A stretch of DNA of 64,000 bases. Source: a virus (taxonomy: Duplodnaviria; Heunggongvirae; Uroviricota; Caudoviricetes). Of this stretch, positions 7,678-44,516 are shown one piece after another (within the stretch, counting starts at the first letter, position 1; every line of letters begins with the position of its first letter). The notes under the pieces were generated by a model. It saw only the letters and a list, made by a program, of their open reading frames with translations. It searched no databases and had not been told where the DNA came from. The position numbers and the translations under genes were made by a program. The DNA lies in IMG/VR virus record IMGVR_UViG_3300049216_000317, positions 20,961 through 84,960 of that record. One strand, given 5' to 3'.

Positions 7678-9063
7678 TTACAGTTGGCCAGTGATATTGT
7701 CCAACAGAACGTTTTTGCGTGGCTGATATGCAGCGAGTGACAAGAAGCGGAACGATGCTTCAGGCAAGCTGAGATCAGAGATCGCAAGTTTCAGTTTCGA
7801 GAACGGAGCCAATTGAGCGAAGCCCAAAGTGTTGGCTTGGATCAAGAAACCAGTCACTGAACCTGGAGCGCGGTTACCAAGATCGGTAAACACAACCGTT
7901 GAGTTCGGACCAGCGGCGACTTTACCGATGAATTTAGCTGAAGCAGCCGATCCACCAACCAACGAGCTATACACGTTGTAGTATTGTGCGCCAGAAACTT
8001 GAGTGATCGTCACGGTGACTTTGTCACCAGCAGCGGCCACAACCGCAGTTGCAGGAGCGGAAGCAACCGATTCACCCAACATTGACACTGCTGTCACGTA
8101 GTAAACGATTGAACCAGCTTGCAAGAGCGAACCAGCTGCGCCACCGTCAGCAACCGCAATGGTTGGACCAGATGGAGCGCCGATGCGTGAACGTGCAGGG
8201 CGAGTTTTGCCAGACAGGAAGCGTGAAGCTTCGAGAGCAACAACTGCTGCGGAAGTCCACTGAGTACGCAAGTGCGCGCCAGTAGCTTCTTGAGCAGAAC
8301 CTGCCAACATAATTCTTTCCTTAGCATGGGCAATTTTGTTATATGCAGAAAGGCTAATAGGATCAAGGATCAGCTTGTCAGCCGCTCCCATATTCATAGC
8401 GCTGCGCACCGAGCTATCTTCAATTACGGATTGAGTAAGAGTTCCGCCGACTGACAAAACTACAGTTTGGTCTGAGCCGTACTCCCCAAACATAAGATCT
8501 TGTGTATTCTGCTCAGCGTCTGATTGACGAACCTGAACATCCACACCGATCATGTTTGGAAGTTTAGCGATTGCGAGCGGGTTACCGTCGAAAACACCAC
8601 CGTTTGAAAAATCGGCCATTCCACGAAAGCTGTCGAATTCAATATCACCGCTTAATTTCATCGCAGCGTTTGCAGCTGAACGATCTTCGGCTTTAACACC
8701 GTCGAATGCGCCGATGAGGTTAGCGGCAACAGTCACGCGAGTAGTCGTGCTGTAGTATGCCATTGGCACAACTGCACGAACGTAGTTCGCATCGTTTTCC
8801 GTTCCGATGCCTCCTTCGAATTGGGCCGTTGCCCCGAAGATCCCGTAGTCAAGCTGACGGTTGAATTGGTGAAGTTGTGACTTCACATCTTTCACACTAA
8901 GCATTTTTTGGAGCTTAATATGGGAATCATCAAAGGTAACATTTTGCATTACCGGCGATAAGTCTTCCACTTGAAGTGCTGAGCCCTGATTGAGTTGGCC
9001 AGGCGCTGCCATTTGGCTGCCGGCTTCCAACGCTTTCATAAGGGACTGAAGTTGTTCGATCAT
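7678..9063 (-). CDS. putative major capsid protein (HK97-fold)
   Basis: 461-aa ORF placed scaffold -> this gene -> decoration protein; Ala/Gly/Ser-rich beta-type composition; flanked by terminator. No motif proof. Confidence 0.5.
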   Translation of the reverse strand: MIEQLQSLMKALEAGSQMAAPGQLNQGSALQVEDLSPVMQNVTFDDSHIKLQKMLSVKDVKSQLHQFNRQLDYGIFGATAQFEGGIGTENDANYVRAVVPMAYYSTTTRVTVAANLIGAFDGVKAEDRSAANAAMKLSGDIEFDSFRGMADFSNGGVFDGNPLAIAKLPNMIGVDVQVRQSDAEQNTQDLMFGEYGSDQTVVLSVGGTLTQSVIEDSSVRSAMNMGAADKLILDPISLSAYNKIAHAKERIMLAGSAQEATGAHLRTQWTSAAVVALEASRFLSGKTRPARSRIGAPSGPTIAVADGGAAGSLLQAGSIVYYVTAVSMLGESVASAPATAVVAAAGDKVTVTITQVSGAQYYNVYSSLVGGSAASAKFIGKVAAGPNSTVVFTDLGNRAPGSVTGFLIQANTLGFAQLAPFSKLKLAISDLSLPEASFRFLSLAAYQPRKNVLLDNITGQL

Positions 9064-10584: not shown

Positions 10585-11907
10585 ATGAATCAGGGAATGT
10601 ACATCGACGGAATCGCAAGTTCTCAAGCGATCGATACAGCGGGCGAAGTCGTCAGCATTCAAGGAATGGACATTTCTTCTTTGGTTGGTTCAGTTTTTAA
10701 CTGGGAACACAACTCAGATACGCCGATGCAAGTCGTTGGTAAGATCCTTTATGCCAAAAAGATCTTTGAAGAAGGCGATTGTGAGAATGATCGCCAGAAA
10801 AAGTGCTGGGCAAGCTGCCAAATGCCGTTTCTATATGTCATGGGCCAGCTTTTTGATGATCGTAATCCGGCAGCGAAAGAAGTCGCTGGCATGTTTATGT
10901 ACGATCAAAACGCTCCGGAACTTCCACCGACCTTAGGTTTTTCAATCGAGGGTTCAAAGATTTCCAAAGAAGGCATGATCGTTACTCGCTCGATTGCACG
11001 CAAGGTGACCATTACATGCGCGCCAGCCAACAAGACTTGCTTGGCAGGTGCTGTTCAGGACGAAGGTCAGGCGAGCCAAGATGATGACATTTCAAATATT
11101 TTTAAGACGGAGTACGTGGTTGATATGGTAAAGGCAGAGGATGCTGAAAAAATGTTGAGCAAGGCAGAAGACGAATACAAAAAAGGTAGCGTGCTTGGCC
11201 AGACGAAATCCGGCAAAGACGTTTATAGCCATGGTCCAGTTCACGCTTCTGGTTTTGATCAAAACGAACATGAAGAAGCTGCGCAAATGCACTTTAGTGC
11301 TGCCGGAAACCAAAAGGGCAATCCAAAGATGGCCCAGCATCACTACGACAAGTATAAGATGCATTCGCAAAAGATCAGTTCTATGAAGGACAAAGCTGAA
11401 CGCTTTAAAGCTTCAGCGCCAAAAACCATCTCAGAACAGCCTCCAAAGTATGGTAAGCTGCACGACCCTCGCATGAGCGGAACAGGCAAACCTCCTGGAC
11501 CAATCAAAAAAGCGATGACTGCTGATTCAGGCTTGGGCGCTCCGCAATCAAAGAACCAAGGCGCCGCACTCTGCAAACATGGCAAGAAGCCCAAAAAGTT
11601 AAAGAAATCTGATGACGTCATGGTTCCCGACGTAGGCCAAGGCCATAAAGACGATGCCCGCAATAAATCTGGTTCGGTAAAGATCGGCAAAAAGGTCATG
11701 CGCAAGTCTTCAATCTTGCAACGCGCCGAAGAAGCGTATAAAAATTGGACTAAGCGCGAAGAGTTTGAACGTTTTATGAAAAACCGCATGCCGAATCTCA
11801 CTAAGGGTGAAATTGCTGCATTCGGTCAAACCCTTGCGCTGAAAAAATCTTTGGACGCTGAAACGTTACTTGCGGATCTCGTTAATTACGAAATCAAAAA
11901 GTCCTAA
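10585..11907 (+). CDS. putative prohead protease (HK97 gp4 / S78-like N-domain) with Lys-rich C-terminal extension
   Basis: IDGIASSQAIDTAGEVV..NWEHN..LGFSIEGSK..VTITCAPAN resembles S78 motifs (His in FNHD-like box, Ser in GxSxG-like box); C-terminal ~250 aa Lys-rich. Confidence 0.45.
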   Translation: MNQGMYIDGIASSQAIDTAGEVVSIQGMDISSLVGSVFNWEHNSDTPMQVVGKILYAKKIFEEGDCENDRQKKCWASCQMPFLYVMGQLFDDRNPAAKEVAGMFMYDQNAPELPPTLGFSIEGSKISKEGMIVTRSIARKVTITCAPANKTCLAGAVQDEGQASQDDDISNIFKTEYVVDMVKAEDAEKMLSKAEDEYKKGSVLGQTKSGKDVYSHGPVHASGFDQNEHEEAAQMHFSAAGNQKGNPKMAQHHYDKYKMHSQKISSMKDKAERFKASAPKTISEQPPKYGKLHDPRMSGTGKPPGPIKKAMTADSGLGAPQSKNQGAALCKHGKKPKKLKKSDDVMVPDVGQGHKDDARNKSGSVKIGKKVMRKSSILQRAEEAYKNWTKREEFERFMKNRMPNLTKGEIAAFGQTLALKKSLDAETLLADLVNYEIKKS

Positions 11908-14576: not shown

Positions 14577-14622
14577 GACTAAGGATATTTGGTCTCAATA
14601 ACCCATGGATAGGAGATTACCC

Positions 14623-24387: not shown

Positions 24388-24444
24388 ATAGTTAAGATTG
24401 CCGCATAATTTGACATTTAAGGCGCAATGCGCTACATTTGACCG

Positions 24445-30315: not shown

Positions 30316-30327
30316 AAGGATTGAATT

Positions 30328-31198: not shown

Positions 31199-31244
31199 TA
31201 TTTAATACCTGGCCCTTTTGGGTGTGCCTGGAGAAAGCTAAAAT

Positions 31245-31544: not shown

Positions 31545-31553
31545 GACTAATAT

Positions 31554-31566
31554 CTATTTTCAACTT
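31554..31566 (+). promoter_or_regulatory. CTATTTTCAACTT motif (second copy) upstream of SPFH gene
   Basis: Identical 13-mer at 5948-5960; followed by TTGCAA. Confidence 0.35.
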
Positions 31567-31615
31567 GCAAAATAGTTACTAGCAATTTAACTTTTCTTAT
31601 TCCATTGGAGGGAAA

Positions 31616-32422
31616 ATGAAATTTGCTATTTTGGTTGCCATGTTTGCTGCATCGATTACTGTTGGTTGTACTCGCGTTGATCAGGGAGAATTCGGTATTG
31701 TAAAGCACTTCGGCGGATCGGTTGACGATGCTCCGGCAGGAGCAGGATACAATATGACGCTCTTCTCATCGATTGAAACGATTGATGCCACAGAAATTCG
31801 CGTTCCAATGAAAGATTTGACGCCCAAAGACAAAGACGGCGTTCTTTTCACGCTCGACATGACTGTTACCTACAAAATCAATCCTGAAAAGGCCGTTGGT
31901 TTTTACAAACAGACTCATGAAGTCGACAAAATCGTAGAAAACAACATTGCGAACAATGTGCTCGGGTATCGCGTCCTTGAAGACGTTGTCGCGAACTCTT
32001 CGACGAAAGCCTTCAATGACTTTACCGTTGCCGAGATTGGGCCGCGGCGTAGTGACATCGAGCAAAAGATGAAAGAAATCATCCAAGCCAAGATCGACGC
32101 TCGCTATGCAGACGCATTTCAAATCGTAAACGTGAACATCAATCGCACAAAACTGGGCGATTCGGTGGAACAAGTTCTTCAAAGCCAAGCGATTGCCAAG
32201 TCTCAGCGCACTTTGCTGGACCTTCAACAGCAATTGGCCGAAAAAGAGACTGATCTTTTGAACAAAAAGTTTGAAGGAATGAAGCGCATTTCAAATACTT
32301 ACGGCATTCCAGTTGAGCGTGTCATGAATTATAAAGTTCAAGAGCAATATAATGGCGTTCTTTCTGAAATTGCTAAAAACCACCAGGGCACGACCTTGGT
32401 CAATGTAAATCAGAAAGAATAG
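31616..32422 (+). CDS. SPFH/band-7 (prohibitin/HflC-like) lipoprotein
   Basis: Signal peptide plus lipobox MKFAILVAMFAASITVGC; VDQGEFGIVKHFG SPFH signature; coiled-coil C-terminus. Confidence 0.7.
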   Translation: MKFAILVAMFAASITVGCTRVDQGEFGIVKHFGGSVDDAPAGAGYNMTLFSSIETIDATEIRVPMKDLTPKDKDGVLFTLDMTVTYKINPEKAVGFYKQTHEVDKIVENNIANNVLGYRVLEDVVANSSTKAFNDFTVAEIGPRRSDIEQKMKEIIQAKIDARYADAFQIVNVNINRTKLGDSVEQVLQSQAIAKSQRTLLDLQQQLAEKETDLLNKKFEGMKRISNTYGIPVERVMNYKVQEQYNGVLSEIAKNHQGTTLVNVNQKE

Positions 32423-32426
32423 TTTG

Positions 32427-32849
32427 ATGCTGTTCCCGAGAAACAAAAGAATTGGATTCATTGCCAGTTCTTTCGACCTAGGCCCGCATGCGGGCCACGT
32501 CGCCACCCTCGCTGAGGCAAAAGAGCATTGCGAATATCTGGTGGTCGCTTTGCATGTCAATCCGCAATCGGAACGGGACTTTAAAAACAAGCCCCTTCCG
32601 TCTGTGAGCGAACGCTTTCTGATTTTGATGGCCAATAAGTTCGTTGATCAGATCATTCCTTATGAGACCGAGCAGGAGCTTATTAACTTGCTCCACTTCG
32701 TCCAGCCCCAGGTCCGATTCCTAGGTGAGGACTATATGCATAAGGATTTTACCGGAAAAGGTATTTCTGGCATCGACATTATCTTTTGCCACAGGAAGCA
32801 TGATGTTTCCAGCAGTGGTTTGCGTAAAAAGATCCGTGGAGAAGCATGA
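32427..32849 (+). CDS. cytidylyltransferase-fold nucleotidyltransferase; candidate NMN adenylyltransferase (NadM-like) or TagD/RfaE-II-like
   Basis: SSFDLGPHAGH (HxGH) and C-terminal DVSSSGLRKKI (ISSTxIR-like) motifs; 141 aa. Confidence 0.5.
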   Translation: MLFPRNKRIGFIASSFDLGPHAGHVATLAEAKEHCEYLVVALHVNPQSERDFKNKPLPSVSERFLILMANKFVDQIIPYETEQELINLLHFVQPQVRFLGEDYMHKDFTGKGISGIDIIFCHRKHDVSSSGLRKKIRGEA

Positions 32850-33160
32850 CTAGACAAGAGGTCCGTAAATTCTTGATCGATTTTAAGTATGACAAGCACG
32901 AATTTAAAGTTCGGTTCTTGCCAAATGGAATCGCTAGAATTACGGGAACTGCTTGGCTTAAGTGCGCCGATACTGGGAAAAAGGTCCAGTTCTCCGACTC
33001 CCGCGATATGAACTATGCCAGTTTCAGTGAATTTGAACTCTTAAATTACATGCGAAACTGGCTTCTCAATATGGCCATTCACGAAAACGACGAAAAAATT
33101 CGATATAAAGGCAAAAAACTCTACGATCCGCACAAGGTCTGGAGCCATCTGTTTTACTGA
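32846..33160 (+). CDS. hypothetical protein
   Basis: 104 aa. Confidence 0.4.
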   Translation: MTRQEVRKFLIDFKYDKHEFKVRFLPNGIARITGTAWLKCADTGKKVQFSDSRDMNYASFSEFELLNYMRNWLLNMAIHENDEKIRYKGKKLYDPHKVWSHLFY

Positions 33161-33166
33161 AATTAG

Positions 33167-33190
33167 CCTATTAGCGCTACATGATATAGC
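33167..33190 (+). promoter_or_regulatory. CCTATTAGCGC motif plus TGATATAGC -10-like element; possible leaderless start of sigma-like gene
   Basis: Motif 33167-33177; TATAGC 33185-33190 ends 7 nt before ATG 33197, and no RBS is present. Confidence 0.35.
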
Positions 33191-33196
33191 GTTAGT

Positions 33197-34243
33197 ATGG
33201 CTAGAAGATCAAGCGGCTTAAAGGTCCATGAGCAGTATGATGCGAGCTTCCAACGGCTTGCAGCTGAACTCACGGCCCAACTAGAACGCAACGAAAATGG
33301 TACAGATCAAAAGCAGCAGTTTGAAGAACTGACTTCGGCGGAATTTGAATTCCGGAAAGCTGTTTGCAAATACCCCAAGCTATCGACTGATGTTTATATT
33401 CGTTTTTTACAGAAAATTACCGTAGAAAACCGAAATATTCTCAGTGCCCGACCCTATTTCCGCGAAACAGCGAAGAATTTCAGCAAGAACGTAACGCCAG
33501 CGATTAAAGCTCGCGACGCCGAAACTTTGAAGACCTTTGATATTAACTTTCAGTTAATCGAGTTCATTCGAGATCACTGGAAGGGCAAATTCCCGGCTGC
33601 GGCTGAAGTCCAGTATCAGCGCGTTTTCAAAGCAAGGAACCTGCTTTGCGAGAACAACATGCCGTTGGCAATTAACCGGGCAAAGCTCTTCTACAAGAAA
33701 ACGCCAAAAGGTCCTCTTTCATTGATGGATATGATCAACATCGCCTCGACTGGACTTGCGTCTGGCGTTGATAAGTATTGTGGAAAGTATTCCCGCATGC
33801 TCAACGGTGTAATCATTGGCCGTATCGTCGGGAATCTCATTGACGAATATTCTGCAACCACACTGCACTTCTACCCTTCGGATCGTCGTATTTTGTATAA
33901 GGCTAATAGCTTACGCGCAAAATTGAAAATTGACGATGTCGAGAAACTCGCCGATGCTGTTAATAAGAGCTTCAGGGAGGATGCGTTGGAAGGTAAAAGT
34001 GTACCCAAGATAGAAGTGACGGCTGCGCAGTTATCAAACCTGCTAAATGCCGCAACGACAGTGAGTTCGGATCAGATCGTGGACGAGGACGGAGTCGGCG
34101 TTTACGATTTCACCCCGTCTTCTTCGCCAAATGCAGAAGATACGCTCATTGAGCGTGAAACGACGGAACAGCTGTTCAATGCAATCGATCGCTTGCCGCT
34201 TCTTCATCGTAAAATTTTGCAGCTTAAGGGAGTAAAACTCTAA
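33197..34243 (+). CDS. sigma-70 family-like transcription factor (regions 2 and 4.1-like, no region 4.2 HTH)
   Basis: ARNLLCENNMPLAINRAKLFYKK..LSLMDMINIASTGLASGVDKYCGKYSRMLNGVIIGRIVG aligns with sigma region 2.1-2.4; C-term LPLLHRKILQLKG like 4.1, then stop. Confidence 0.5.
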   Translation: MARRSSGLKVHEQYDASFQRLAAELTAQLERNENGTDQKQQFEELTSAEFEFRKAVCKYPKLSTDVYIRFLQKITVENRNILSARPYFRETAKNFSKNVTPAIKARDAETLKTFDINFQLIEFIRDHWKGKFPAAAEVQYQRVFKARNLLCENNMPLAINRAKLFYKKTPKGPLSLMDMINIASTGLASGVDKYCGKYSRMLNGVIIGRIVGNLIDEYSATTLHFYPSDRRILYKANSLRAKLKIDDVEKLADAVNKSFREDALEGKSVPKIEVTAAQLSNLLNAATTVSSDQIVDEDGVGVYDFTPSSSPNAEDTLIERETTEQLFNAIDRLPLLHRKILQLKGVKL

Positions 34244-34554
34244 TGTTCTCAGTCAATAATCGCCTAATTTTAGAGAAATATACTAAAGAGGGTCTTCGCA
34301 AGGACGATTCCAAGACTGGTTTTGCGATGATCGCCCAGAAGACCCGACTTAAAGGGCTGCGTCTTCTCGTGGATGCCAAAATCGTTGATGGCACAAAAGA
34401 CGGATACGTCATTGGCAAAGGCTCGATCATTTACATCAAAGAAGAAACGCTTCATACGGCTCCTTGGGCCGCAAAGTTTTTAGAATGCGATAAGATTGGC
34501 GAACCATTCATGATCGTCGATTCAGCACATATTGAGTTTGTTGCCGATGAATAA
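34243..34554 (+). CDS. hypothetical protein (TAATG-coupled to sigma-like gene)
   Basis: 103 aa. Confidence 0.4.
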   Translation: MFSVNNRLILEKYTKEGLRKDDSKTGFAMIAQKTRLKGLRLLVDAKIVDGTKDGYVIGKGSIIYIKEETLHTAPWAAKFLECDKIGEPFMIVDSAHIEFVADE

Positions 34555-35521
34555 GCAATTTCTTTACGTGGGAGATCCCCATATTCAGATTCAGAACCTT
34601 GAGGATGCCGAAAAGCTCTTGTCGCATATTTACGACATGGTATCGGGCTCTACACCGCCAGATCGAGTCGTTTTTCTAGGAGATTTGCTTCACACGCACG
34701 CAATTGTGCGAGTGGAGGTCTTGGAATTCTGGCGCAGATGGCTTTTTCAGATTAGCAGCTTTGTTCCGGTGACGATTCTCGTGGGAAACCACGACATGAC
34801 TGGCGACTATAGTTCGAAGGCCACGGCGCTATCGCTGTTTGCAAGCGGGCGGGTCACGGTTGTGGACGAACCTCTTGCCGAAGGTGCGATTGGCTTTTTG
34901 CCTTACATCCATTCGCAAGAAGAGTTCATTGATTCCGCCAACGGACTGGTAAGCCGTGGTGTACGGACTATCGTCTGTCATCAAAGCTTCTCAGGCTCCA
35001 AATTCGAAAACGGATATTTTGATCCTCATGGAATCAATCCTGATTTGCTGACGGCGACTCTTATCATTTCTGGGCATATTCACATGCAACAGAAATTCGG
35101 GAAGGTCTGGCATCCAGGTACGCCGATGTGGCTAACTGCTTCGGATGCAAATCAAGAGAAGGGGCTTTGGCTTGTTGATCATTCTCCTGACGGTGACATT
35201 GCTGGTCTTTCGTTTATTGATACATCAAAGATCGTTACTCCGATTGTTTCCGTCCAGTGGAAGCAAGGGGAACCTAAGCCCTCGCTGCCAGAAAATGCGA
35301 AAGCGACAGTCGAACTCATCGGCTGTGCAGAATGGGTAAGCGCTAATAAAAGCGAACTTAAAGGCATCTCGGTTCAGTCGACTTTTACCGATAAGGCAAA
35401 AATTCGAATGACGAAGACCACTTCGTTTGAAGAGTTTGTCGACTCCGAATTTGAGCTTCCGCCTGAAATTGAGAAAACAGAATTCAAAGATTTTCTCAAG
35501 GAGATGGGCCTTGTCGGATAA
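34547..35521 (+). CDS. SbcD/Mre11-family nuclease
   Basis: YVGDPHI, FLGDLLH, GNHD metallophosphoesterase motifs; ATG 34547 overlapping upstream stop. Confidence 0.7.
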   Translation: MNKQFLYVGDPHIQIQNLEDAEKLLSHIYDMVSGSTPPDRVVFLGDLLHTHAIVRVEVLEFWRRWLFQISSFVPVTILVGNHDMTGDYSSKATALSLFASGRVTVVDEPLAEGAIGFLPYIHSQEEFIDSANGLVSRGVRTIVCHQSFSGSKFENGYFDPHGINPDLLTATLIISGHIHMQQKFGKVWHPGTPMWLTASDANQEKGLWLVDHSPDGDIAGLSFIDTSKIVTPIVSVQWKQGEPKPSLPENAKATVELIGCAEWVSANKSELKGISVQSTFTDKAKIRMTKTTSFEEFVDSEFELPPEIEKTEFKDFLKEMGLVG

Positions 35522-35522
35522 A

Positions 35523-35855
35523 GTGAAAGAAACCGTAAGAGAAATGGCGGCATTGACAATTTTGAGCGGGAAAATCAATCCCGTTCAGGTCAATACGATC
35601 CAAATGTATCCAATGATCATGTTTGATGGCGTGAAAAAGGCCACCATTCATTACGATCTTTCACGTCCAGAGCCTTCAGAAGAAAAAGTTAAACACAACT
35701 CGCTTATCGTTTTTGATCTAGAAACTGAGCAAGAGCAAACCAAGCTCGAAAAGCGCTGCGCTTATCTTGAGATCGCCGTTCGGGAGCTTTTCTGGAAAGA
35801 AGTGCTCATCGAAGTCCTTTTCAACGGCAAAAGCGTTTACAAGTCGGAATCCTAA
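35523..35855 (+). CDS. hypothetical protein
   Basis: Track ORF 35427..35855 trimmed to GTG 35523 (alternative ATG 35544). Confidence 0.35.
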   Translation: MKETVREMAALTILSGKINPVQVNTIQMYPMIMFDGVKKATIHYDLSRPEPSEEKVKHNSLIVFDLETEQEQTKLEKRCAYLEIAVRELFWKEVLIEVLFNGKSVYKSES

Positions 35856-36520
35856 TGTCGGAAAATACAAACCTTCAAAAAGTCGTAACTGACGTCTCCA
35901 AGCGAACTGAATTTACTGAAAAGGACCTTGAAGACCTTGAGCAGTATAAGGCCGAAGGGGCTCCGGGAATCCATGCGATTCCCCACGAAGTTTTAACCAA
36001 GTGCATGGAACTCTATTTAGAGGGTCGCTCCTTTAGGGAAATTTCGGTTACGCTTCTTTTAAAGCGCATCCAGATCATGTATTTGGCGCAGCGGTTTAAT
36101 TGGTGGGACATTCGCCAAAACTATATTGAAGAACTGCAAAACCAAATTGCCCAACGAGTGGTCGATTCAAAACTGTCTTCCCAGACGTTTATGCTGAAAC
36201 TCATCCATAACTGGGAACGGCGCATGAGTAAAAAAATCGACGAATATCAGCGAACAAACGTAGAGCCTGAAGGCGGCGTGGTAGATTTCAAAGAGGTCGA
36301 TAAGTACCTAAAAACCGTCGAAGTTTTGCATAAAATCACAGCTGAAAACACCGGACGCTTGAACGTTCCCGCTTCTCCAATCGGTTTGAACGTGGGCGAC
36401 GGCATTACCATCGAAAAGAACGGTAACCAGCTAAACATTTCACCGAAAACTAAAGAACGCTCTGTTGCCGAGATGCTCAAGGCCATTGCGGACGCAAAAC
36501 GCCAAGAAAATGGAGAATAA
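35855..36520 (+). CDS. hypothetical protein with possible HTH
   Basis: 221 aa; LYLEGRSFREISVTL segment HTH-like. Confidence 0.4.
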   Translation: MSENTNLQKVVTDVSKRTEFTEKDLEDLEQYKAEGAPGIHAIPHEVLTKCMELYLEGRSFREISVTLLLKRIQIMYLAQRFNWWDIRQNYIEELQNQIAQRVVDSKLSSQTFMLKLIHNWERRMSKKIDEYQRTNVEPEGGVVDFKEVDKYLKTVEVLHKITAENTGRLNVPASPIGLNVGDGITIEKNGNQLNISPKTKERSVAEMLKAIADAKRQENGE

Positions 36521-37381
36521 ATGAGAAACTTTTTGATCGTCATCTTTTGCTTACTTGTTTGCGTAAGTCTGCCAATTGTTCATATGGCGATTACCAAGAA
36601 TCTATCAAGCGATGTGATCACGCTGAATGCTTCTAATACGATCGTTTTGGACGCTGAAGTTAATGGCGATTCTGAAGGCCAGCTTTTGGCCATGGCTCTG
36701 TCGACCGACAAACAATTGCGCCCTGGCGATCCGATCTATCTTTACCTTCAAACGCCAGGCGGTAGTGTGACGGCTGGCGAAGAAATCATTGAAGTTTTGC
36801 ATGGCCTTGGACGTCCAGTTCATACCATCACGGCACACGCTGCCAGCATGGGCTTTTTAATCGCTCAGAACCTCGGTACACGCTATATTCTCTCGACGGG
36901 CGTAATGATGAGCCACCGCGCCTCCGGTGGCGTGGAGGGTTCGTTTGGCGGCAAAGAGCCTAGCCAAATGCAAAGCCGCTACAATCAGCTTTTGCGTGAA
37001 ATGGAAACTTTTGATCTGCAAGTCGTGAAACGTTCAAACGGAAAACAGACTTTAGAAAGCTATCGCCAGGCAAATGACCAGGAACTTTATGCCCGAGGCC
37101 AAGATGCCGTCGACAAAGGGTATGCGGACCAAGTTGCCAAGGTTAAATGCGGCGCGTCTTTAAGTGGCACGACAACGTTCGTTCAAAAAGCAAACGGACT
37201 GCAAGTCGAATTCCAAATGGCAAACTGTCCTCTCGATTCGAATCCGCAGAACATCCGAGTTATTGCGCCAAAGGTCAAAAACATGATTCCGCCCACCGAA
37301 GATCAAATTCGCGAAACTAAGCGAATTTTCTTGCAGGAATTTAACCGCGCACGCGCAAGCACGATCCCTCTGGAGTTATAA
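36521..37381 (+). CDS. ClpP-fold serine protease with N-terminal signal/anchor (NfeD/SppA-like)
   Basis: PIYLYLQTPGGSVTAG, AASMGFLIA (Ser), MMSHRASGG (His) collinear with ClpP; N-term MRNFLIVIFCLLVCVSLPIV hydrophobic. Confidence 0.65.
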   Translation: MRNFLIVIFCLLVCVSLPIVHMAITKNLSSDVITLNASNTIVLDAEVNGDSEGQLLAMALSTDKQLRPGDPIYLYLQTPGGSVTAGEEIIEVLHGLGRPVHTITAHAASMGFLIAQNLGTRYILSTGVMMSHRASGGVEGSFGGKEPSQMQSRYNQLLREMETFDLQVVKRSNGKQTLESYRQANDQELYARGQDAVDKGYADQVAKVKCGASLSGTTTFVQKANGLQVEFQMANCPLDSNPQNIRVIAPKVKNMIPPTEDQIRETKRIFLQEFNRARASTIPLEL

Positions 37382-37632
37382 TGCCGATCATGGCTTTTGT
37401 TTGCCCAGACGGGCATATTGTTAAAAAGTTCCTGCGCAAAGTGCCCAAGGGAGAACTGTCCTTCCGCTGTCCGGGATGTGGCAAGCCCTTAAGTCATCAA
37501 CTCTGTGCGCCAAATTCACAATCCCTGGTTATTGTGGATAACGGCGTTCAAGCTAAAGCGGTCGAAGTAAATCTGGATATGGTCGAAAAGATCCGTGAAC
37601 AATCAACTAAAGATTTTTCAGAAAAAGACTAG
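37381..37632 (+). CDS. zinc-ribbon protein
   Basis: CPDGH..CPGCGKPL; 83 aa. Confidence 0.4.
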   Translation: MPIMAFVCPDGHIVKKFLRKVPKGELSFRCPGCGKPLSHQLCAPNSQSLVIVDNGVQAKAVEVNLDMVEKIREQSTKDFSEKD

Positions 37633-37663
37633 CCAAAAGCACGCATGCTTGTAACGATTTGGC

Positions 37664-39775
37664 ATGCTGAAGTTCAAGACACTGACATTTCAAAATATCG
37701 GCCTTTTTGTTACACCTCAAACGGTCGAAATCGACAAGCTTGGTCGACTCGTTCAAATTGAGGGCAAAAACCTCAACACCGGGGGCTCTTCCGGGGCCGC
37801 AAAGACAACGATTTTCAATGCAATCGACTTTCTTTTTGGTCTCAATGACATCTCAAACTCAGATCTGCAATCTCGACTGACAAAAGACAGCATTAGCGTT
37901 TCCGGTCTTTTTGATTACGACGGTAAAATTCTAAAAATCACCCGTGGCAAAAAGCTTGTAATTGAAATCGATGGCGAGACGACGACCGGAAGTTCCAAAA
38001 TTGCCGAAGAAAAACTTGATCAAATTCTTGGCGTTTCGCGCGAGCTATTTCGAGCCATGCTTCATAAGCGCCAAAAAGAGGGCGGCTTTTTCCTGGACCT
38101 TAAGCCAGGCGATACATACGATTTTTTGACCGACTGTTTGGGGCTCAAAGAAATGCGTATGAAAGCGGAAATCGCCGAAAGCGCGGCTTCTGAATTTCGA
38201 AAACAATTGATCGTCCAAAATACCACGCTAGAAAGCGCTAAAGCTGCCGTGGAGGCGATCAACAATGCTTTGCTTGCTCTGGGTGACCGCCCAGCGATTC
38301 GTCATACTGACGAGGAACTCAGCAAACTATACGAGGCAGCGCGTAATGCTAGCTACGTCGTCGACAATCTCAATCAAAGACAGATTGCGGAGCTTGCTGA
38401 ATTAGAAAAAACAAGACCTGTAGCCGAAGTTGATCAGTTTGATGGATCAAAACTTGAAGCACTTTATCAGCGAAAAAAGGCTTTAGAAGACGAAACGAGC
38501 CTTTTGCGCGTTGAAGAAGTTAAAATAGCTGCTGCGCAAAAAGAGATCTCGCACCAAAAGCAGGCTAAATTTGTGCGCCAAGAAACCGACAAAAAAGCTC
38601 AGGTGAAAGTCCTCGATGGCTTCGCTGCCGCAGGCAAAAGAGCAAATGACCGCGCAATTCAGATCGCAACAGAGATCAAGGCGATCCGCGCACAAACTTG
38701 CTTTACCTGTCACCAAACCTGGACCACCGAGACTGCGAAAAAGAAGGAACGAGACCTTCTTGCTGAATTGGCTGATGTCCGAAAGGTTATGCAGGAAGGA
38801 ACAGACGCTTCGATCAAGGCCGAACTGCTTCTTTCGGAAATAGCAGCAGATCGTCTACGCCATGAAAAGGAAATGCAGGAATCTTTGGTTCCCATAGCGA
38901 GCAACCCTCGTCTTGCGGAGATTGCCGCCATATATTCTGCCGTCCTTGCGGATATTAAAAACGAAGCCGATAACCGCTCGCTTTATATGAAAGAATTGAC
39001 GGCAAAAAACGAAGCCAAAATGAAAGCTTTCGTTGATTCCGTTAATAAAATGAAAAATGAGCATGCGCGATTGATTGGAATGCTTTTAGAAGACCATCGT
39101 CAAAAAGACAGCGCGCATAAAATTGCCATGAGCAACGTTGAATCCGACCGTGCAGCAGTTGAACGCTACGAAAAGTCGACCCTGCAAATGATGCGTCAAC
39201 ACGAAGCTGCCGTTACCAAGCTTTCGGAAGCAACAAACGACCTTGTTCGTACAAAACGGCGTTCTTCTATGGCGGATGAGGCCCGACGGGCCATCAAAGA
39301 ATACACTTCACGTCAATTCGATGGCGCCTTGCAGGTGATTAGCGAAAACGCCACCAAGACAATCCGCCAGATCCCCAATATGCGAACGGCTACGGTCGAA
39401 ATTTCGGCAACTAAAGAGACTGGTGATGGGCGCGTCAAAGAAGAAGTGAATAAAATGATTCACATGAACGGCGAAGAAAAGATCTCGATTAAGACTTTGT
39501 CTGGCGGTGAGCGCACTTCTGCCGATTTGGCCGTAGATCTGGCCGTTATGCAGTTTGCGGAAGAAACTGCCGGTAAGGGAATCGACTTATTTTTGCTGGA
39601 CGAGCCATTTACTGGACTAGAGGCCGTAAATATTGAAGCGATCGTCGAAATGCTCAAAGTATCCAGCCTTACAAAGCGCATCATGGTCGTGGACCATAAT
39701 CCGATTATTGCTGAAACCTTCGAATCAAAGCTCCTGGTACAGCGAAACGGGTCCAGTAGTTTTCTATTAGCTTAA
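37664..39775 (+). CDS. SbcC/Rad50-family ATPase
   Basis: N-term GGSSGAAKTTIFNAIDF (Walker A), long coiled-coil, C-term LSGGERTSADLAV signature and LFLLDEPF Walker B. Confidence 0.75.
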   Translation: MLKFKTLTFQNIGLFVTPQTVEIDKLGRLVQIEGKNLNTGGSSGAAKTTIFNAIDFLFGLNDISNSDLQSRLTKDSISVSGLFDYDGKILKITRGKKLVIEIDGETTTGSSKIAEEKLDQILGVSRELFRAMLHKRQKEGGFFLDLKPGDTYDFLTDCLGLKEMRMKAEIAESAASEFRKQLIVQNTTLESAKAAVEAINNALLALGDRPAIRHTDEELSKLYEAARNASYVVDNLNQRQIAELAELEKTRPVAEVDQFDGSKLEALYQRKKALEDETSLLRVEEVKIAAAQKEISHQKQAKFVRQETDKKAQVKVLDGFAAAGKRANDRAIQIATEIKAIRAQTCFTCHQTWTTETAKKKERDLLAELADVRKVMQEGTDASIKAELLLSEIAADRLRHEKEMQESLVPIASNPRLAEIAAIYSAVLADIKNEADNRSLYMKELTAKNEAKMKAFVDSVNKMKNEHARLIGMLLEDHRQKDSAHKIAMSNVESDRAAVERYEKSTLQMMRQHEAAVTKLSEATNDLVRTKRRSSMADEARRAIKEYTSRQFDGALQVISENATKTIRQIPNMRTATVEISATKETGDGRVKEEVNKMIHMNGEEKISIKTLSGGERTSADLAVDLAVMQFAEETAGKGIDLFLLDEPFTGLEAVNIEAIVEMLKVSSLTKRIMVVDHNPIIAETFESKLLVQRNGSSSFLLA

Positions 39776-39834
39776 ATTCAATTGCGTAAATAGTAAATAA
39801 CGTCTTATCCTGGTTTCTCAAACGGAGGAACCAA

Positions 39835-40122
39835 ATGGGTAAGTTCAAAGAAAAGCTGTCGTTCGAAGAGAAACTTCAAAAGGACGAGCCAGCATTCTGT
39901 TCTAGCGTTGACGGCATGGGCGTTGAGGCACTCAACAAAGAACTCGTGCGCTACGCGAAATATAGCGAAGAAATCCAATCGGAAATCGAAAACAGTGCGG
40001 CGCTTAAAGAGGCCAAAGAGGCTCTTAAGCTTATCACTGGACCTTTCAACGATGCCAAAAAAGGCAATCGCACAAAAATGCGCTACATCATCAATTTGAT
40101 TAAGGCAAAAGGCGGCCAGTAA
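39835..40122 (+). CDS. hypothetical protein
   Basis: 95 aa, RBS GGAGG; directly precedes resolvase. Confidence 0.4.
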   Translation: MGKFKEKLSFEEKLQKDEPAFCSSVDGMGVEALNKELVRYAKYSEEIQSEIENSAALKEAKEALKLITGPFNDAKKGNRTKMRYIINLIKAKGGQ

Positions 40123-40782
40123 GTGACTGAGCGGGTCTTGGCCTTGGATATGAGCACAAAGACGGGCTGGGCGATGATGACAATCGTCGACCAAAAGCTT
40201 GTGCTCAATGCATATGGCCAGTTTCCCGCAATTTCGGAGCCAGCATACCCTTACCCCGAATCCTATCTGGTCTGGGCCAATCAAATCTTCGAAAAAATCA
40301 GAGATCTCTTCGATACGTTCAACCCTGATATAGCAGTTATAGAAGAAACGGCTGGCGGCTCGAAATCGAATTATTCGCAGAAGATTCTCGAATTCATTCA
40401 TTTCAGGGTTGCGCGATATGTGACCGACAGAGGAACTCCGACCAAATACTTTATGACTGAAGAATGGCGAAGAATCTGCGGATGCAAGATGACCAAAGAG
40501 GAGTCGAAGCGAAACAAAGAGGTTCGTGATTTCAAGAAGAAACACGGAACAAAGCTTGCGAAAAATACTGATGGAAAGGTGATTGGCCGCATTGGCCGAA
40601 AGCACGTAAATGTCCGTCGAGCCAATGAAATCTTCGATGGTCAGCTGAAAGAAGCACTTCGTAAAAAAGACGAAGATACGGCGGACGCGCTCCTTTTAGG
40701 GGCGGCCTATCATCTTCAAAAGTGGGCTCCCACAAAGCAAACAACCCTGAAAGGACTTAGGGATAATGGAAAAACAGCTTAA
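40123..40782 (+). CDS. RuvC-like Holliday junction resolvase
   Basis: LALDMSTKTGWAM (first Asp), IAVIEETAGG (Glu), C-term DALLLGAAY; GTG start. Confidence 0.55.
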   Translation: MTERVLALDMSTKTGWAMMTIVDQKLVLNAYGQFPAISEPAYPYPESYLVWANQIFEKIRDLFDTFNPDIAVIEETAGGSKSNYSQKILEFIHFRVARYVTDRGTPTKYFMTEEWRRICGCKMTKEESKRNKEVRDFKKKHGTKLAKNTDGKVIGRIGRKHVNVRRANEIFDGQLKEALRKKDEDTADALLLGAAYHLQKWAPTKQTTLKGLRDNGKTA

Positions 40783-41407
40783 GCCAGAGATTGTCGTAAC
40801 ACAATTCAGTGAAACCGCCGTTCATGAATATATCGACAAGCTCGAACTGATCACAGACGCGTTCGGTCCCGAACAGCCCATCGTTCTGAAAATTGATAGC
40901 TACGGTGGCGCGGCCTATGGGTTGATTATGCTTCTGGAACATTTGAAAACGATGCCCAATCCGATTGCAACATACACGATCTCAAAAGCTATGTCGGCAG
41001 GAGCATTCCTTCTATCGATCGGTGGAAGCAAAGGCCTTCGAATGGCGAGTCCGCATTCGACGATCATGGTTCACGAGATTCAAGCTGGCGCGATGGGCGA
41101 CATGAAAGAATTAGAGCAGCAAATGGGAACCTTGGTTGCTCTGAATGAACGGATTTTGACCATGTTTGCACACGCAATTGGTTTGAAGACCGCAAGCGAC
41201 GTTCGCGCTTTGATTAAGAGTCGCTCAGTTGGACATGATTTGACGATCTCCGCCTTGGAAGCCCAGCAACTGGGGTTCATCGACAAAGTCGGATACATGC
41301 GCATTGAACCAAATATGAGATTTGACCTTCACATGAGTCTTGTCGGGGCGAAGCCCGAAAAAACAAAGCCCGCCAAGAAAAAGAGACGACCAGGAGCAAA
41401 TAAATGA
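40766..41407 (+). CDS. ClpP-fold serine protease (second copy, cytoplasmic)
   Basis: IDSYGGAAYG, AMSAGAFLL (Ser), IMVHEIQAG (His); Lys-rich C-term. Confidence 0.65.
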   Translation: MEKQLKPEIVVTQFSETAVHEYIDKLELITDAFGPEQPIVLKIDSYGGAAYGLIMLLEHLKTMPNPIATYTISKAMSAGAFLLSIGGSKGLRMASPHSTIMVHEIQAGAMGDMKELEQQMGTLVALNERILTMFAHAIGLKTASDVRALIKSRSVGHDLTISALEAQQLGFIDKVGYMRIEPNMRFDLHMSLVGAKPEKTKPAKKKRRPGANK

Positions 41408-42303
41408 ATTTTTGGGACCAGCCAGAACCCTTCGTTGATCGACCAATGGGTCAAGACGAAGAAGTTACGATGCAAGATTATGCAACACCACCACCAGTTC
41501 GCCGTTCGGCCCCAGCGCAACGTGCCGAGGAAGTCGTTCAAGAAGTCATGAGCGAAGATGAAGAGTTCGAAGATACCGAATGGTTGACAGACGCACGTCT
41601 GCGACTTGAGCAAGGTCGTTTATACGAACTGCTCATGAATCACAATATGTTCGAAGGCGTCCAGGCGGATGCTCGTGCCATTCGAAATGTGCAGCGTGAA
41701 ATTCGTCAATACGCGAAAGAACGTATGGAAATCATGCTCGGAATGCGCCAAATGGCGGCTCCGGTTCAGCAGGCCCAAAGTTCAGTACCGTTCAACGAAA
41801 TGGAACTTCAAGTTTTACGTTTGCTGGCCAACAAAGCCTCTGGCGGCAAAACAGCAGAACAGCCCGCTCCAGCACGAGAAGGCTTGGCACCTATGGTAGC
41901 CCCCCCGCAACCACCAAAAGCCGTTGCAAAGCCAATGGTAGCTCAAAAACCAGCACCTTTAGCTAAAGCAGAAAAACCTTTGCCGAAATCCCCCCAAAAG
42001 CCAATCGAACGAAAGAAAGACCCAATCGTTGATCGTATCTTGCGTGAGGAAGGTCTGACGAGAGAGCACCTAGAGGAAAACTATCGTCCTTTGGATAAAG
42101 ATCCTTCGCAAATGACAGAAGAAGAGAAGATTCAGCGCAATCAAGAAATCACGAAGCGCCGGCGTCTTCAAACGAAGTCAGATTCGGCAAAGCCAATGCC
42201 GTCATTTGAGCAGCAGAACGCTTATTATTCCCAGCAGGCGGCTCAAGTCGCTGGTGGGCCGATGTCCCTTTTGCTCGCAGCAGTCGCCAATAAGAATAAA
42301 TAA
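41404..42303 (+). CDS. hypothetical protein (acidic N-term, Pro/Ala/Lys-rich C-term)
   Basis: 299 aa, ATGA-coupled to ClpP-like gene. Confidence 0.45.
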   Translation: MNFWDQPEPFVDRPMGQDEEVTMQDYATPPPVRRSAPAQRAEEVVQEVMSEDEEFEDTEWLTDARLRLEQGRLYELLMNHNMFEGVQADARAIRNVQREIRQYAKERMEIMLGMRQMAAPVQQAQSSVPFNEMELQVLRLLANKASGGKTAEQPAPAREGLAPMVAPPQPPKAVAKPMVAQKPAPLAKAEKPLPKSPQKPIERKKDPIVDRILREEGLTREHLEENYRPLDKDPSQMTEEEKIQRNQEITKRRRLQTKSDSAKPMPSFEQQNAYYSQQAAQVAGGPMSLLLAAVANKNK

Positions 42304-42334
42304 CACCTGATATAGGTTCAATAAGGAGTTCAAC

Positions 42335-42862
42335 ATGCAACAAAAACAAGCCCCAGTAGCCCCGAAACGTAATGCCGCCCAACGACTCGATGACCTCGAA
42401 GCAGGTATGTCGCAGTTTTTTAACGCATTCAACAACCTTGCCGCAGAGACGATGACTATTAAAGAAGCCATCAAGCTATTGGGCAATAAAACAGAGTCGA
42501 TCGTACAAGTGATCGGCGAAGGTAAGCCCGTCAACGACGATACGATCTCGGCACAGATGGTTGAAAACAATGTAACGACACTTAAAGAAGCCGTTACAAA
42601 AATGATCAGCGACAAAATCTTGGTTGAGCAAGATGCGATCTCGATGACTAGCTTTGTCGTCGGTCAAGAAATCAACGACGAAGGAAAAGTCATTCAACCT
42701 CGCACGCAATTCGCTCTTGCCGCGATTCCAAATGAGCTTCAGCAAAAATGTCTGGGCGCTAAGCCAGGCGACGTTTTGGAACTTCAACCAGGCAAACTGA
42801 AACTCTCAGTGCAAGAAGTTTACAACATTTGCATGCCGGAGCAGCCCAAACAAGAAGCGTAA
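42335..42862 (+). CDS. hypothetical protein
   Basis: 175 aa, RBS AAGGAG; TGATATAGG -10-like element upstream. Confidence 0.45.
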   Translation: MQQKQAPVAPKRNAAQRLDDLEAGMSQFFNAFNNLAAETMTIKEAIKLLGNKTESIVQVIGEGKPVNDDTISAQMVENNVTTLKEAVTKMISDKILVEQDAISMTSFVVGQEINDEGKVIQPRTQFALAAIPNELQQKCLGAKPGDVLELQPGKLKLSVQEVYNICMPEQPKQEA

Positions 42863-42916
42863 TCTTAAAGTTAACGGGCACTAACGACTGTTTAGTGCCT
42901 TTCTTGTGGGGGTTGG

Positions 42917-44125
42917 ATGTTTCAAGACCAGAAGTTCACAGATGCCGAAATAGCTTTTATTGCCGCCCTCAAAGAGGATTCCGGCATGGGCTGGCCCGAA
43001 ATTACCGATAAGTTCAATAAAAAGTTCAAGAATGATAAAAGCTCAAATGCTGTTCGTAAAGGCTATGAGCGGGCTCGGGATCGTATTTCTGGCGGGAACG
43101 GCGAATACGTTCGTTTATTTCGATCCGTCGCTACTACTAAAAAGAACAACTCATTAAATTCCAAAGATCTGCGCAATGTTTTAAAAGCTTGGGATGAACG
43201 CGAAGATATTTTAGAGGCCATCAAAGGCGCAGCATCTGACGTTAATAAGGTAAAAGTACCGCCTAGAACAAAGTCGAGCAAGGGCAAGCCTTGTATGACA
43301 ATGGAATTACTCATTAGCGATGTTCACGTAGGTAAACTGACGGATACATTCAATCACGATGTTTTGAAGAGACGCCTCATGCAGCTTTCTTCGACCATGA
43401 TCAAGGAAATGCATAAAAACTCGCTGACCAGTAAAATTGATCGCGTAATCCTGGCATTTCTTGGGGATTTAATCGAATCGTCAACCATGCACGGAACCGA
43501 GTCGGCTAAAGGTTGCGAATTCGGGAATTCTCGGCAAGTTCAAGAATGCTTGGTTCACCTGTTCAATCTCGTTGTTGTCCCGATCTCTCAAGCGGCAGCC
43601 CAATATGGCGCGACGGTTGATTGCGTAGGCGTTGCGGGAAACCATGATCGCACAGAACATGATCGTACCTATAACCGCGTTGGCGAAGAAAATGTGACCT
43701 GGATCATCTATAATTCGATGAAAGAGTTCACAAAGCTTGCCGGACTAAAAGATGTCAGCTGGCATATCCCCGTTGACCCTTATATTCGCTTGGAAATCTA
43801 TGGCGAAGGCGTTTTGTTTGAACATTATGACAACGCCAAAGGAAACACGCGCGCAGCGCTCGAAAACCTGCTTGCAAAGCGTGTGAATCAGCTTAAAAAG
43901 CCTATTCGCTTCATGCGCGGTGGGCATTTCCACGAACCAACAGAATATGGCGTCGGCAAAATCATCATTAACGGAAACGTTCCCGGAAACGATGGTTATA
44001 GCACCTCGCATGGATTTGATTGCGAGCCTACTCAGACGCTGAATTTTTATATCGAACGCGAGAAAGGTGACTCGGTTAAGCGTGAAACGTCTTTCTACAA
44101 ACGAATGCTTATCCAGCTAAATTGA
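42917..44125 (+). CDS. calcineurin-like metallophosphoesterase with N-terminal HTH-like region
   Basis: SDVHVG, LGDLIE, GNHD motifs; 402 aa. Confidence 0.55.
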   Translation: MFQDQKFTDAEIAFIAALKEDSGMGWPEITDKFNKKFKNDKSSNAVRKGYERARDRISGGNGEYVRLFRSVATTKKNNSLNSKDLRNVLKAWDEREDILEAIKGAASDVNKVKVPPRTKSSKGKPCMTMELLISDVHVGKLTDTFNHDVLKRRLMQLSSTMIKEMHKNSLTSKIDRVILAFLGDLIESSTMHGTESAKGCEFGNSRQVQECLVHLFNLVVVPISQAAAQYGATVDCVGVAGNHDRTEHDRTYNRVGEENVTWIIYNSMKEFTKLAGLKDVSWHIPVDPYIRLEIYGEGVLFEHYDNAKGNTRAALENLLAKRVNQLKKPIRFMRGGHFHEPTEYGVGKIIINGNVPGNDGYSTSHGFDCEPTQTLNFYIEREKGDSVKRETSFYKRMLIQLN

Positions 44126-44126
44126 T

Positions 44127-44516
44127 GTGGGGCACTACGAGGAACGAGTCGCGCTTAGCGGGCAAATCACGAGCCTGTCCGACGAAATACAAATCGCCGC
44201 GAATAAACACGAAGGACTCGCTTTCTCCATTGAAGTTTGTGAAGACCAAATTACGCTTCTTCTGGAAAATATAGCTATCATGAAATCCCCCGGAATCATC
44301 CTCGTTGCGAGCGAATACCGGAAGGCAATCATCGAATTGTCAGAAGCCAAGACCTCTCTCAAAGAACTCAAAAAGAATTTCAGGGAACTCGATATATCTC
44401 TTCGACGATTGCGCGCAAAGTTTGCCAAGCTCGTCGGCCATTCAAATGAACTAAGGCTCGTTACCGGGACAGTTCTTTATGGCAATTTCAAAAGGCCAAA
44501 AAATGGACAAAATTGA
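44127..44516 (+). CDS. hypothetical protein
   Basis: GTG start, 129 aa. Confidence 0.3.
   Translation: MGHYEERVALSGQITSLSDEIQIAANKHEGLAFSIEVCEDQITLLLENIAIMKSPGIILVASEYRKAIIELSEAKTSLKELKKNFRELDISLRRLRAKFAKLVGHSNELRLVTGTVLYGNFKRPKNGQN

Follow-up and report, generated by a model that had tools for sequence, protein, structure and literature searches.

Two ClpP-fold serine proteases of a large Mx1-like phage, one of them predicted to be exported

The 64 kb window studied here (the whole stretch of DNA that was analysed, positions 20,961 to 84,960 of IMG/VR record IMGVR_UViG_3300049216_000317) is part of a phage genome of ~164.5 kb (164,531 bp) and encodes two divergent proteins with the fold of the ClpP serine protease, hereafter called protein 1 and protein 2. 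From comparisons of sequence and gene order we propose, with a probability of about 0.72, that protein 1 is an exported, ATP-independent protease of the host envelope, that protein 2 is a separate cytoplasmic peptidase and that the phage head is matured by another enzyme, encoded at 10585. Protein 1 belongs to a large, phage-specific and previously unrecognised family.

Results

Two divergent ClpP-fold proteins are encoded in the window

Both open reading frames (ORFs) match the Pfam CLP_protease family PF00574 above its gathering cut-off of 20.2 bits, with scores of 62.4 bits for protein 1 and 79.7 bits for protein 2. Their best matches among solved structures are all ClpP, to which the Ser box and the His box of both proteins can be aligned; a phmmer search of the Protein Data Bank with protein 2 reached ClpP at E 1.2e-14. 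The two genes lie 3.4 kb apart on the same strand, and their products can be aligned to each other across 77 residues only, with 26% identity. A third ClpP-fold ORF was sought in the window and none was detected. These data agree with an initial annotation of the stretch, which had described two divergent ClpP-fold proteases that keep both the Ser and the His box.

Protein 1 carries a conserved signal segment and paired cysteines

In order to describe the protein 1 family, 78 distinct sequences were extracted from 87 loci, and their N-termini were judged by a heuristic scoring (positively charged n-region, hydrophobic h-region and either small residues at -3/-1 or a lipobox). In 77 of the 78 sequences, K/R precedes a hydrophobic segment, and the lone exception starts 72 bases from the end of its contig. 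Textbook Sec signals ending in AxA are common in the family (...SIAVQA/KT, ...PAFASA/ET and ...LPMAHA/KE, the slash marking the cleavage site), and three members show a lipobox-like motif, as LLLASC in locus L019. A second transmembrane-like segment was observed in none of the 78 sequences. In the AlphaFold2 (AF2) model of protein 1, residues 2-22 form an isolated helix that is followed by a low-confidence linker. An over-extended start codon as the source of the hydrophobic N-terminus was considered and excluded, given the conservation of the segment, the GGAG located 5 nt upstream of the ATG at 36521 and the direct abutment of this ATG to the stop codon of the upstream gene.

Cys210 and Cys236, both located in the C-terminal extension, are present in all 77 complete sequences. 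Beyond the signal segment, the sequences contain either 2 (31 sequences) or 4 (46 sequences) cysteines and never an odd number; the exception, a truncated fragment of 174 aa, has none. The two additional cysteines of the longer members lie on a 40-residue insertion. A signal peptide, lipoprotein variants and strictly paired cysteines are the classic mark of proteins that fold in the oxidising periplasm. Together, the conserved signal segments, the lipobox variants and the paired cysteines thus indicate that protein 1 is probably exported or membrane-anchored, in line with the signal-peptide- or anchor-like start that had been noticed in the single sequence.

The catalytic core is equally well conserved: the catalytic Ser and His are found in 78/78 sequences, and the position of ClpP Asp171 is occupied by Glu in 75 of them and by Asp in 2. 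Protein 1 has ~15 mature residues ahead of strand beta1 as compared to 26 in mature E. coli ClpP; hence the axial loops and helix A, which form the pore gate and the ATPase contact, are missing. A region of the length of the ClpP handle is present in the monomer model. The pocket that receives the IGF/IGL loop is partly hydrophobic but carries the change F82G, in an alignment of ~25% identity in which individual positions are uncertain.

The core is followed by the C-terminal extension, which is modelled by AF2 with a pLDDT of ~87-96 that drops at the extreme C-terminus. It has no match in Pfam, and a search of 1.84 billion representative sequences with its 82 residues returned only protein 1 itself and one family member. 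When the full-length model was submitted to a fold search of BFVD, a Fadolivirus protein of 299 aa labelled 'Clp protease/TepA' (A0A7D3V576) was matched with a TM score of 0.64 and 25% identity over 243 columns. An extended architecture like that of protein 1 may therefore, judging from this model comparison, also occur in giant viruses of eukaryotes.

The protein 1 family is widespread in large phages

At least 252 loci of the protein 1 family were found in IMG/VR, many of them on contigs of 150-177 kb. A large protein database contributed 44 homologs, of which the closest 38 are 35-52% identical to protein 1 and 253-338 aa long, several being encoded on contigs of 150-166 kb. By comparison, a collection of 185,579 species genomes yielded only six loci; each of them is on a contig of a metagenome-assembled genome, and the phage gene block was recognised, whole or in part, in 5/6. 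Neither protein 1 nor protein 2 is encoded by Myxococcus phage Mx1 (169.6 kb), the nearest isolate of the phage studied here, which was reached only via its major capsid protein (52% identical). The literature was searched for exported ClpP and ClpP encoded by phages, for NfeD combined with SPFH, phage and ClpP, and for the Mx1 genome; no paper on an exported or phage-encoded ClpP came up.

Protein 1 is embedded in a conserved DNA-metabolism block

The gene order around protein 1 is strongly conserved. The upstream gene, which encodes a 221-aa protein, adjoins it in 50/58 loci and the downstream zinc-ribbon gene in 55/56, the latter gene being itself followed by SbcC in 52/56. Upstream of this block lie the helicase, sigma-like and SbcD genes, and downstream of it the RuvC gene, the Pro/Lys-rich gene and the gene of a 175-aa protein (p175). 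Such an arrangement suggests that protein 1 is co-expressed with replication and recombination genes. Operon boundaries could not be drawn from scans for promoters and terminators. Matches to sigma-70-type promoters are depleted at 33000-44500 (3 vs 12.5 +/- 3.8 expected), and the 348-aa protein encoded at 33197-34243 (p348) is a homolog of the Mx1 'putative RNA polymerase sigma factor'; both observations are consistent with the use of phage-specific promoters.

The 221-aa protein has no match in Pfam or PHROG. At the equivalent position of Mx1, after an SbcD-like gene and a small ORF, a 209-aa gene directly precedes the large terminase, and the 221-aa protein might be a small terminase; no similarity between the 221-aa and 209-aa proteins was detected.

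Protein 2 is a lineage-specific, predicted cytoplasmic accessory

Protein 2 has neither a hydrophobic N-terminus nor any cysteine, which is consistent with the cytoplasmic location assigned to it initially. Only 7 residues precede strand beta1 (26 in E. coli ClpP). At the positions that form the ClpX/ClpA docking pocket, which were checked against the E. coli sequence, protein 2 shows the mostly non-conservative changes Y62K, F82T, L114S, L189G and L48E, again in an alignment of ~25% identity with uncertain positions. Its detectable family is tiny (6 proteins), and its closest deposited relatives are 'ClpP' genes of jumbo phages, with 29-37% identity.

As first noted, a Pro/Lys-rich protein is encoded just after protein 2; this gene is conserved in the clade independently of protein 2. 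It directly follows RuvC in 27/33 related loci, and in the window these two genes are separated by a 625-nt gap that holds protein 2. This adjacency in the relatives identifies protein 2 as a lineage-specific insertion. The idea that the Pro/Lys-rich protein is a partner or scaffold specific to protein 2 was excluded, as it is kept beside RuvC in relatives that do not encode protein 2. Conversely, in the phage that encodes P0047, a protein 57% identical to protein 2, the protein 2 gene occupies the same site and protein 1 is absent from its syntenic site, where a 229-aa gene is directly followed by the zinc-ribbon gene. Mx1 encodes a Clp-like protein of a third lineage (L094, 187 aa, OR576727.2 144701-145264, minus strand), located beside a primase-helicase gene. 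It has the Ser and the His, no signal peptide and a K/R/P-rich C-terminal tail. Protein 2 likewise ends in a Lys-rich tail, and cytoplasmic ClpP-fold proteins that phages encode near replication genes may repeatedly have such basic tails. The patterns seen in the P0047 phage, in Mx1 and in the window show that ClpP-fold genes are recurrent, independently acquired accessories in this clade. We conclude that protein 2 is an accessory enzyme, which neither acts as the head protease nor teams up with protein 1.

A distant relative of protein 2 (34% identity) was found 7 kb from a Band_7 gene in L089, a 175 kb contig (10001-10672 and 17715-18689). The phage of L089, large and unrelated, has a gene for a Vault/MVP-shoulder protein as well. 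This is the only proximity of ClpP-fold and SPFH genes outside the window and is probably coincidental.

The head is matured by an assemblin-fold protease

The ORF at 10585, located beside the capsid genes, has the assemblin fold with conserved His and Ser residues and is conserved in Mx1 and in SPO1-like phages. It has no match in Pfam or NCBIfam down to E 10, the Peptidase_S78 family (PF04586) included. The initial annotation of this ORF as an S78 prohead protease can thus be kept with regard to its function, on the basis of fold and position, and dropped with regard to its membership of Pfam S78. Head maturation is carried out by this assemblin-fold protease. At a distance of ~27 kb from the capsid gene, the two ClpP-fold genes are surrounded by those of SbcCD, RuvC, an exonuclease and DnaE.

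The SPFH gene belongs to a lineage-specific island

An SPFH lipoprotein is indeed encoded at 31616, as Pfam and PHROG matches confirm (Table 1). Its gene lies in an island of 3.7 kb between the helicase gene and the sigma-like p348 gene, together with YkuD, phosphatase and cytidylyltransferase genes. The gap between helicase and p348 is 3720 nt in the window and <400 nt in 52/58 relatives, so that the two genes are adjacent there. The island genes (29477-32849) indicate that this phage carries several extra envelope-directed genes. The SPFH gene and protein 1 are 4.1 kb apart, with eight genes between them.

SPFH genes were searched by tblastn and phmmer with the window sequence and then with a profile built from six phage SPFH sequences. 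Among the other 87 protein 1 loci, none has an SPFH gene of the lipoprotein type within 10 kb of protein 1; since both searches missed the divergent Band_7 gene of L089, used as a control, this negative result holds only for the lipoprotein-type subfamily and for this distance. The argument against a linkage of the two genes is consequently carried by the synteny gap analysis and by Mx1. A clear, unannotated SPFH homolog (L093, OR576727.2 124733-125671, minus strand; profile E 1.5e-24) is encoded by the latter, which lacks protein 1. Five further phages carry an SPFH gene of this type; the annotation within 3 kb of it shows no NfeD- or ClpP-type gene, and the hidden Markov model of protein 1 detected none there. 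The Mx1 SPFH gene lies beside NMN adenylyltransferase, NAMPT and cytidylyltransferase genes. As the SPFH gene of the window is likewise followed by a cytidylyltransferase-like gene, an association of SPFH with nucleotidyltransferases may be conserved.

Gene map of the window

A near-identity DNA search against deposited phages gave no match, none of them being close at the DNA level. The host of the phage is probably a diderm, Myxococcota-like bacterium. After the GroEL gene, the plus strand encodes in order a helicase, a YkuD-type L,D-transpeptidase with a signal peptide, a phosphatase, the SPFH lipoprotein, a cytidylyltransferase-like protein and the 348-aa protein; then an SbcD-like protein, the 221-aa protein, protein 1, the zinc-ribbon protein, SbcC-like and RuvC-like proteins, protein 2 and the Pro/Lys-rich protein; and, 3' of the latter, the 175-aa protein, an exonuclease, RNase H and DnaE. 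The window also has a set of auxiliary genes that large phages typically carry, namely an RtcB RNA ligase (12160-13353), a NAMPT-type phosphoribosyltransferase (14605-16098), an ATP-dependent DNA ligase (16519-17685) and the GroEL homolog. A 266-aa ORF on the minus strand (39805-40605), antisense to a 95-aa gene and to the RuvC-like gene of the plus strand, is without support and probably spurious. A classical AAA ATPase (PF00004) of 338 aa with a Ser-rich N-terminus is encoded at 61434-62450 and is the sole unfoldase-like candidate gene within the window; an AAA ATPase is also annotated in Mx1.

Table 1. Positions of the features discussed in the text, numbered from the first letter of the window.
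Feature	Position	Strand	Remarks
Protein 1, 286 aa, S14-like ClpP-fold serine protease, predicted exported	36521..37381	+	phage-specific family member
Signal peptide or signal anchor of protein 1, residues 1-23, MRNFLIVIFCLLVCVSLPIVHMA	36521..36589	+	hydrophobic segment in 77/78 homologs
ClpP-fold catalytic core of protein 1, residues 34-207	36620..37141	+	
Catalytic residues of protein 1	Ser109 36845-36847; His132 36914-36916; Glu188 37082-37084		
C-terminal extension of protein 1, residues 208-286	37142..37378	+	four beta-strands and a helix
Cysteines of the protein 1 extension	Cys210 37148-37150; Cys236 37226-37228		
Protein 2, 213 aa, ClpP-fold protease, predicted cytoplasmic	40766..41407	+	PF00574; Lys-rich C-terminal tail
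Catalytic triad of protein 2	Ser77 40994-40996; His103 41072-41074; Asp158 41237-41239		aligned with E. coli ClpP
221-aa conserved protein upstream of protein 1	35855..36520	+	stop codon abuts protein 1 ATG
83-aa zinc-ribbon protein	37381..37632	+	start overlaps protein 1 stop by 1 nt; weak Zn_ribbon_8 match
Pro/Lys-rich 299-aa protein	41404..42303	+	in 49/88 loci and in Mx1, with or without protein 2
SPFH/Band_7 lipoprotein	31616..32422	+	PF01145 E 3.3e-16; phrog_200 E 4.6e-25
YkuD_2 L,D-transpeptidase with signal peptide	29477-30103	+	island gene
Metallophosphatase	30328-31008	+	island gene
Cytidylyltransferase-like gene	32424-32849	+	island gene
Prohead protease	10585..11907	+	assemblin/T4 gp21-fold N-terminal domain (~1-160), helical and disordered C-terminal part
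Conserved residues of the prohead protease	His42 10708-10710; Ser120 10942-10944		
Major capsid protein	7678..9063	-	phrog_752 E 2.6e-39; 52% identity to Mx1 major capsid protein
Portal	19708-21522	-	
Large terminase	22513-24456	-	
GroEL homolog	25977-27746	-	

Discussion

Several observations weigh against the proposal that protein 1 is an exported envelope protease and protein 2 a separate cytoplasmic peptidase. Both proteins score far below the cut-offs of the NCBIfam models for true ClpP (TIGR00493, 48.9 bits for protein 1 and 65.6 bits for protein 2 vs 308.6; NF001368, 56.9 and 71 bits vs 249); the behaviour of ClpP can therefore not be safely transferred to them. Their best PHROG matches are to families labelled 'head maturation protease' (phrog_94, E 5e-16 and 2e-20). 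The likely cleavage site of protein 1 in the window, VHMA/IT, has an atypical His at -3 and is less canonical than those of its relatives, which means that this particular protein may stay membrane-anchored. Lastly, protein 1 is encoded among cytoplasmic DNA-metabolism genes, none of its immediate neighbours looks exported, and the context gives no functional clue to a role in the envelope.

The PHROG labels, together with sub-threshold matches to the Clp_rel_HeadMat model NF045542, could indicate that at least one of the two ClpP-fold proteins is a structural or head-maturation protease and that the N-terminal segment of protein 1 does not serve export. A ClpP-related type of prohead protease is common in siphophages, protein 2 begins at beta1 as these enzymes do, and a low-complexity, possibly scaffold-like protein is encoded next to it. 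We nevertheless regard this explanation as quite improbable, because the NF045542 scores (44.8 and 54.1 bits) remain below the cut-off of 120, both genes are remote from the capsid, scaffold and portal genes, and a dedicated assemblin-fold protease that is kept in Mx1 and SPO1-like phages is encoded beside the capsid gene. Moreover, Mx1 makes a related capsid without protein 1 or 2, the Pro/Lys-rich gene is conserved where protein 2 is not, and signal peptides and paired cysteines would make no sense for an enzyme acting inside the procapsid. A specific version of the explanation that we favour is that protein 1 is an analogue of SppA that, during infection, would dispose of misfolded secretory proteins or signal peptides on the outer side of the inner membrane. 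This is unlikely as well, although less so. Protein 1 is not an S49 enzyme by sequence: SppA models give 12-15 bits against cut-offs of at least 155 (TIGR00706, 14.8 vs 155; NF008195, 12.5 vs 746), and PF01343 is not matched. It also has Ser-His-Glu and not Ser-Lys catalytic residues, in a single ClpP domain and not in tandem domains or a bowl.

The phage-borne envelope module put forward in the initial annotation, in which protein 1 would be an NfeD/STOPP-type membrane protease with the SPFH lipoprotein encoded at 31616 as its partner and substrate, is not supported. The NfeD/STOPP protease 1510-N uses a Ser-Lys dyad, Ser97/Lys138 (PMC3795559). Long forms of NfeD have hydrophobic stretches followed by a soluble, all-beta NfeD C-terminal domain of the OB fold (PMC2636767, PMC4208085), and their genes adjoin an SPFH gene or share its operon (PMC2636767). 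Protein 1 has a Ser-His-Glu triad and no internal hydrophobic stretch; it does not match the NfeD C-terminal domain PF01957 even at E 10; and NfeD1b_N gives 15.7 bits (18.8 bits for protein 2) against a cut-off of 40, ClpP being the better match by sequence and by structure. As for the gene pair, the two genes are not adjacent, the SPFH island is absent from 52/58 relatives, the other protein 1 loci are devoid of a lipoprotein-type SPFH gene within the distance searched, Mx1 has an SPFH gene without protein 1, and the five further phages with this SPFH type lack an NfeD- or ClpP-type gene nearby. These results make the proposed SPFH protease function of protein 1 very improbable and largely refute a conserved SPFH-NfeD module. 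We give still less credence to a hetero-oligomer of proteins 1 and 2 like the ClpP1/ClpP2 pairs of mycobacteria, Listeria or cyanobacteria. It is true that two divergent and catalytically complete ClpP-fold genes lie close together on the same strand. However, the export signal and the paired cysteines that are conserved for protein 1 are both absent from protein 2, which places the two proteins in different predicted compartments, and both lack the N-terminal region needed for coupling to an ATPase. The genes are also gained and lost independently: most of the 87 other loci have only protein 1, with an occasional, weakly scoring protein-2-like ORF (e.g. in L024), and the P0047 phage has protein 2 without protein 1 at the syntenic site.

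Returning to an exported protein 1, we propose that it would carry a Sec signal peptide that is either removed by cleavage near Ala23 or retained to anchor the protein by its N-terminus, and that a few of its relatives would be lipidated instead. In a diderm host, the catalytic domain would then lie in the envelope or the periplasm and would there use the Ser109-His132-Glu188 triad. ClpP without its N-terminal gate degrades unfolded substrates unaided and, to our knowledge, the periplasm contains neither ATP nor Clp ATPases; since protein 1 lacks the axial loops and helix A, it would be expected to act independently of ATP. Its substrates may be peptides, or unfolded or exposed envelope proteins. 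The beta/alpha extension at the C-terminus is likely to serve in substrate binding or in assembly, and one disulfide, or two in the longer relatives, probably holds it together. Given that protein 1 belongs to a translationally coupled block among replication and recombination genes, it would be expressed early or in the middle of the infection and may contribute to envelope remodelling, for example by removing a receptor, an envelope defence protein or a quality-control protein of the host. Protein 2 would be a separate cytoplasmic peptidase, catalytically complete (Ser77-His103-Asp158) and devoid of the gating region and apparently of a conserved docking pocket.

ClpP is the classic case of a protease that relies on AAA+ unfoldases of the cytoplasm, and we know of exported ClpP-fold enzymes only from the Ser-Lys families SppA and NfeD. 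The protein 1 family combines an S14-like sequence and a His-containing triad with a signal peptide and conserved paired cysteines. A large, phage-specific family with conserved synteny suggests that phages may have repurposed the ClpP scaffold for the envelope. More tentatively, and with considerable doubt, the family could represent the first S14-type ClpP outside the cytoplasm or the organelle matrix, a gate-less self-compartmentalised ring with a Ser-His-Glu triad and a disulfide-stapled C-terminal cap that would destroy specific envelope proteins, such as receptors and defence or quality-control factors, in the periplasm of diderm hosts without ATP. The family offers an entry point to the manipulation of the host envelope by large environmental Mx1-like phages, and to a ClpP core without gate or ATPase. 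The public labels are misleading in this respect, namely 'ATP-dependent Clp protease proteolytic subunit' and, for the related PHROG families, 'head maturation protease'. The present analysis also corrects the SPFH-NfeD account, which was attractive but unsupported.

Comparison with known systems

Neither protein has the N-terminal axial loops or the helix A of ClpP itself (clan SK, S14, PF00574), which forms the proteolytic core of ClpXP and ClpAP. Protein 1 differs further by its signal peptide, by the Glu that replaces the Asp of the triad and by a Cys-containing C-terminal extension of ~80 residues; protein 2 differs by non-conservative changes at the docking pocket of the IGF loop (alignment of ~25% identity) and by its Lys-rich tail. 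SppA/protease IV (S49) has a Ser-Lys dyad in a tandem or oligomeric bowl, and protein 1 fits the S14 models much better. The long forms of NfeD/STOPP, such as Pyrococcus horikoshii PH1510, also use a Ser-Lys dyad, in contrast to the Ser-His-Glu of protein 1, and combine hydrophobic stretches, an OB-fold domain and an operon with SPFH, none of which was found for protein 1. With T4 gp21, HK97 gp4 and the herpesvirus assemblin (clan SH), the head protease encoded at 10585 shares the fold without a Pfam S78/S77 match, and it is a member of an Mx1/SPO1-like subfamily. The ClpP-related head-maturation proteases of phages (NF045542; PHROG 94, 2976 and 1684) are likewise short, phage-encoded ClpP-fold proteins that start near beta1, but proteins 1 and 2 are below the NF045542 cut-off and outside the head module, and protein 1 is predicted to be exported. 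The closest deposited relatives of protein 2 are the non-structural 'ClpP' proteins of jumbo phages (such as Escherichia phage A4/Asteriusvirus, the Vibrio phage phiTY18 group and the uncultured 595 kb phage LR756511). As for protein 2, the 'ClpP' gene of phage A4 is found among DNA-metabolism genes and not among head genes; protein 2 is set apart from these relatives by its own Lys-rich tail and by the very small size of its family (6 database matches).

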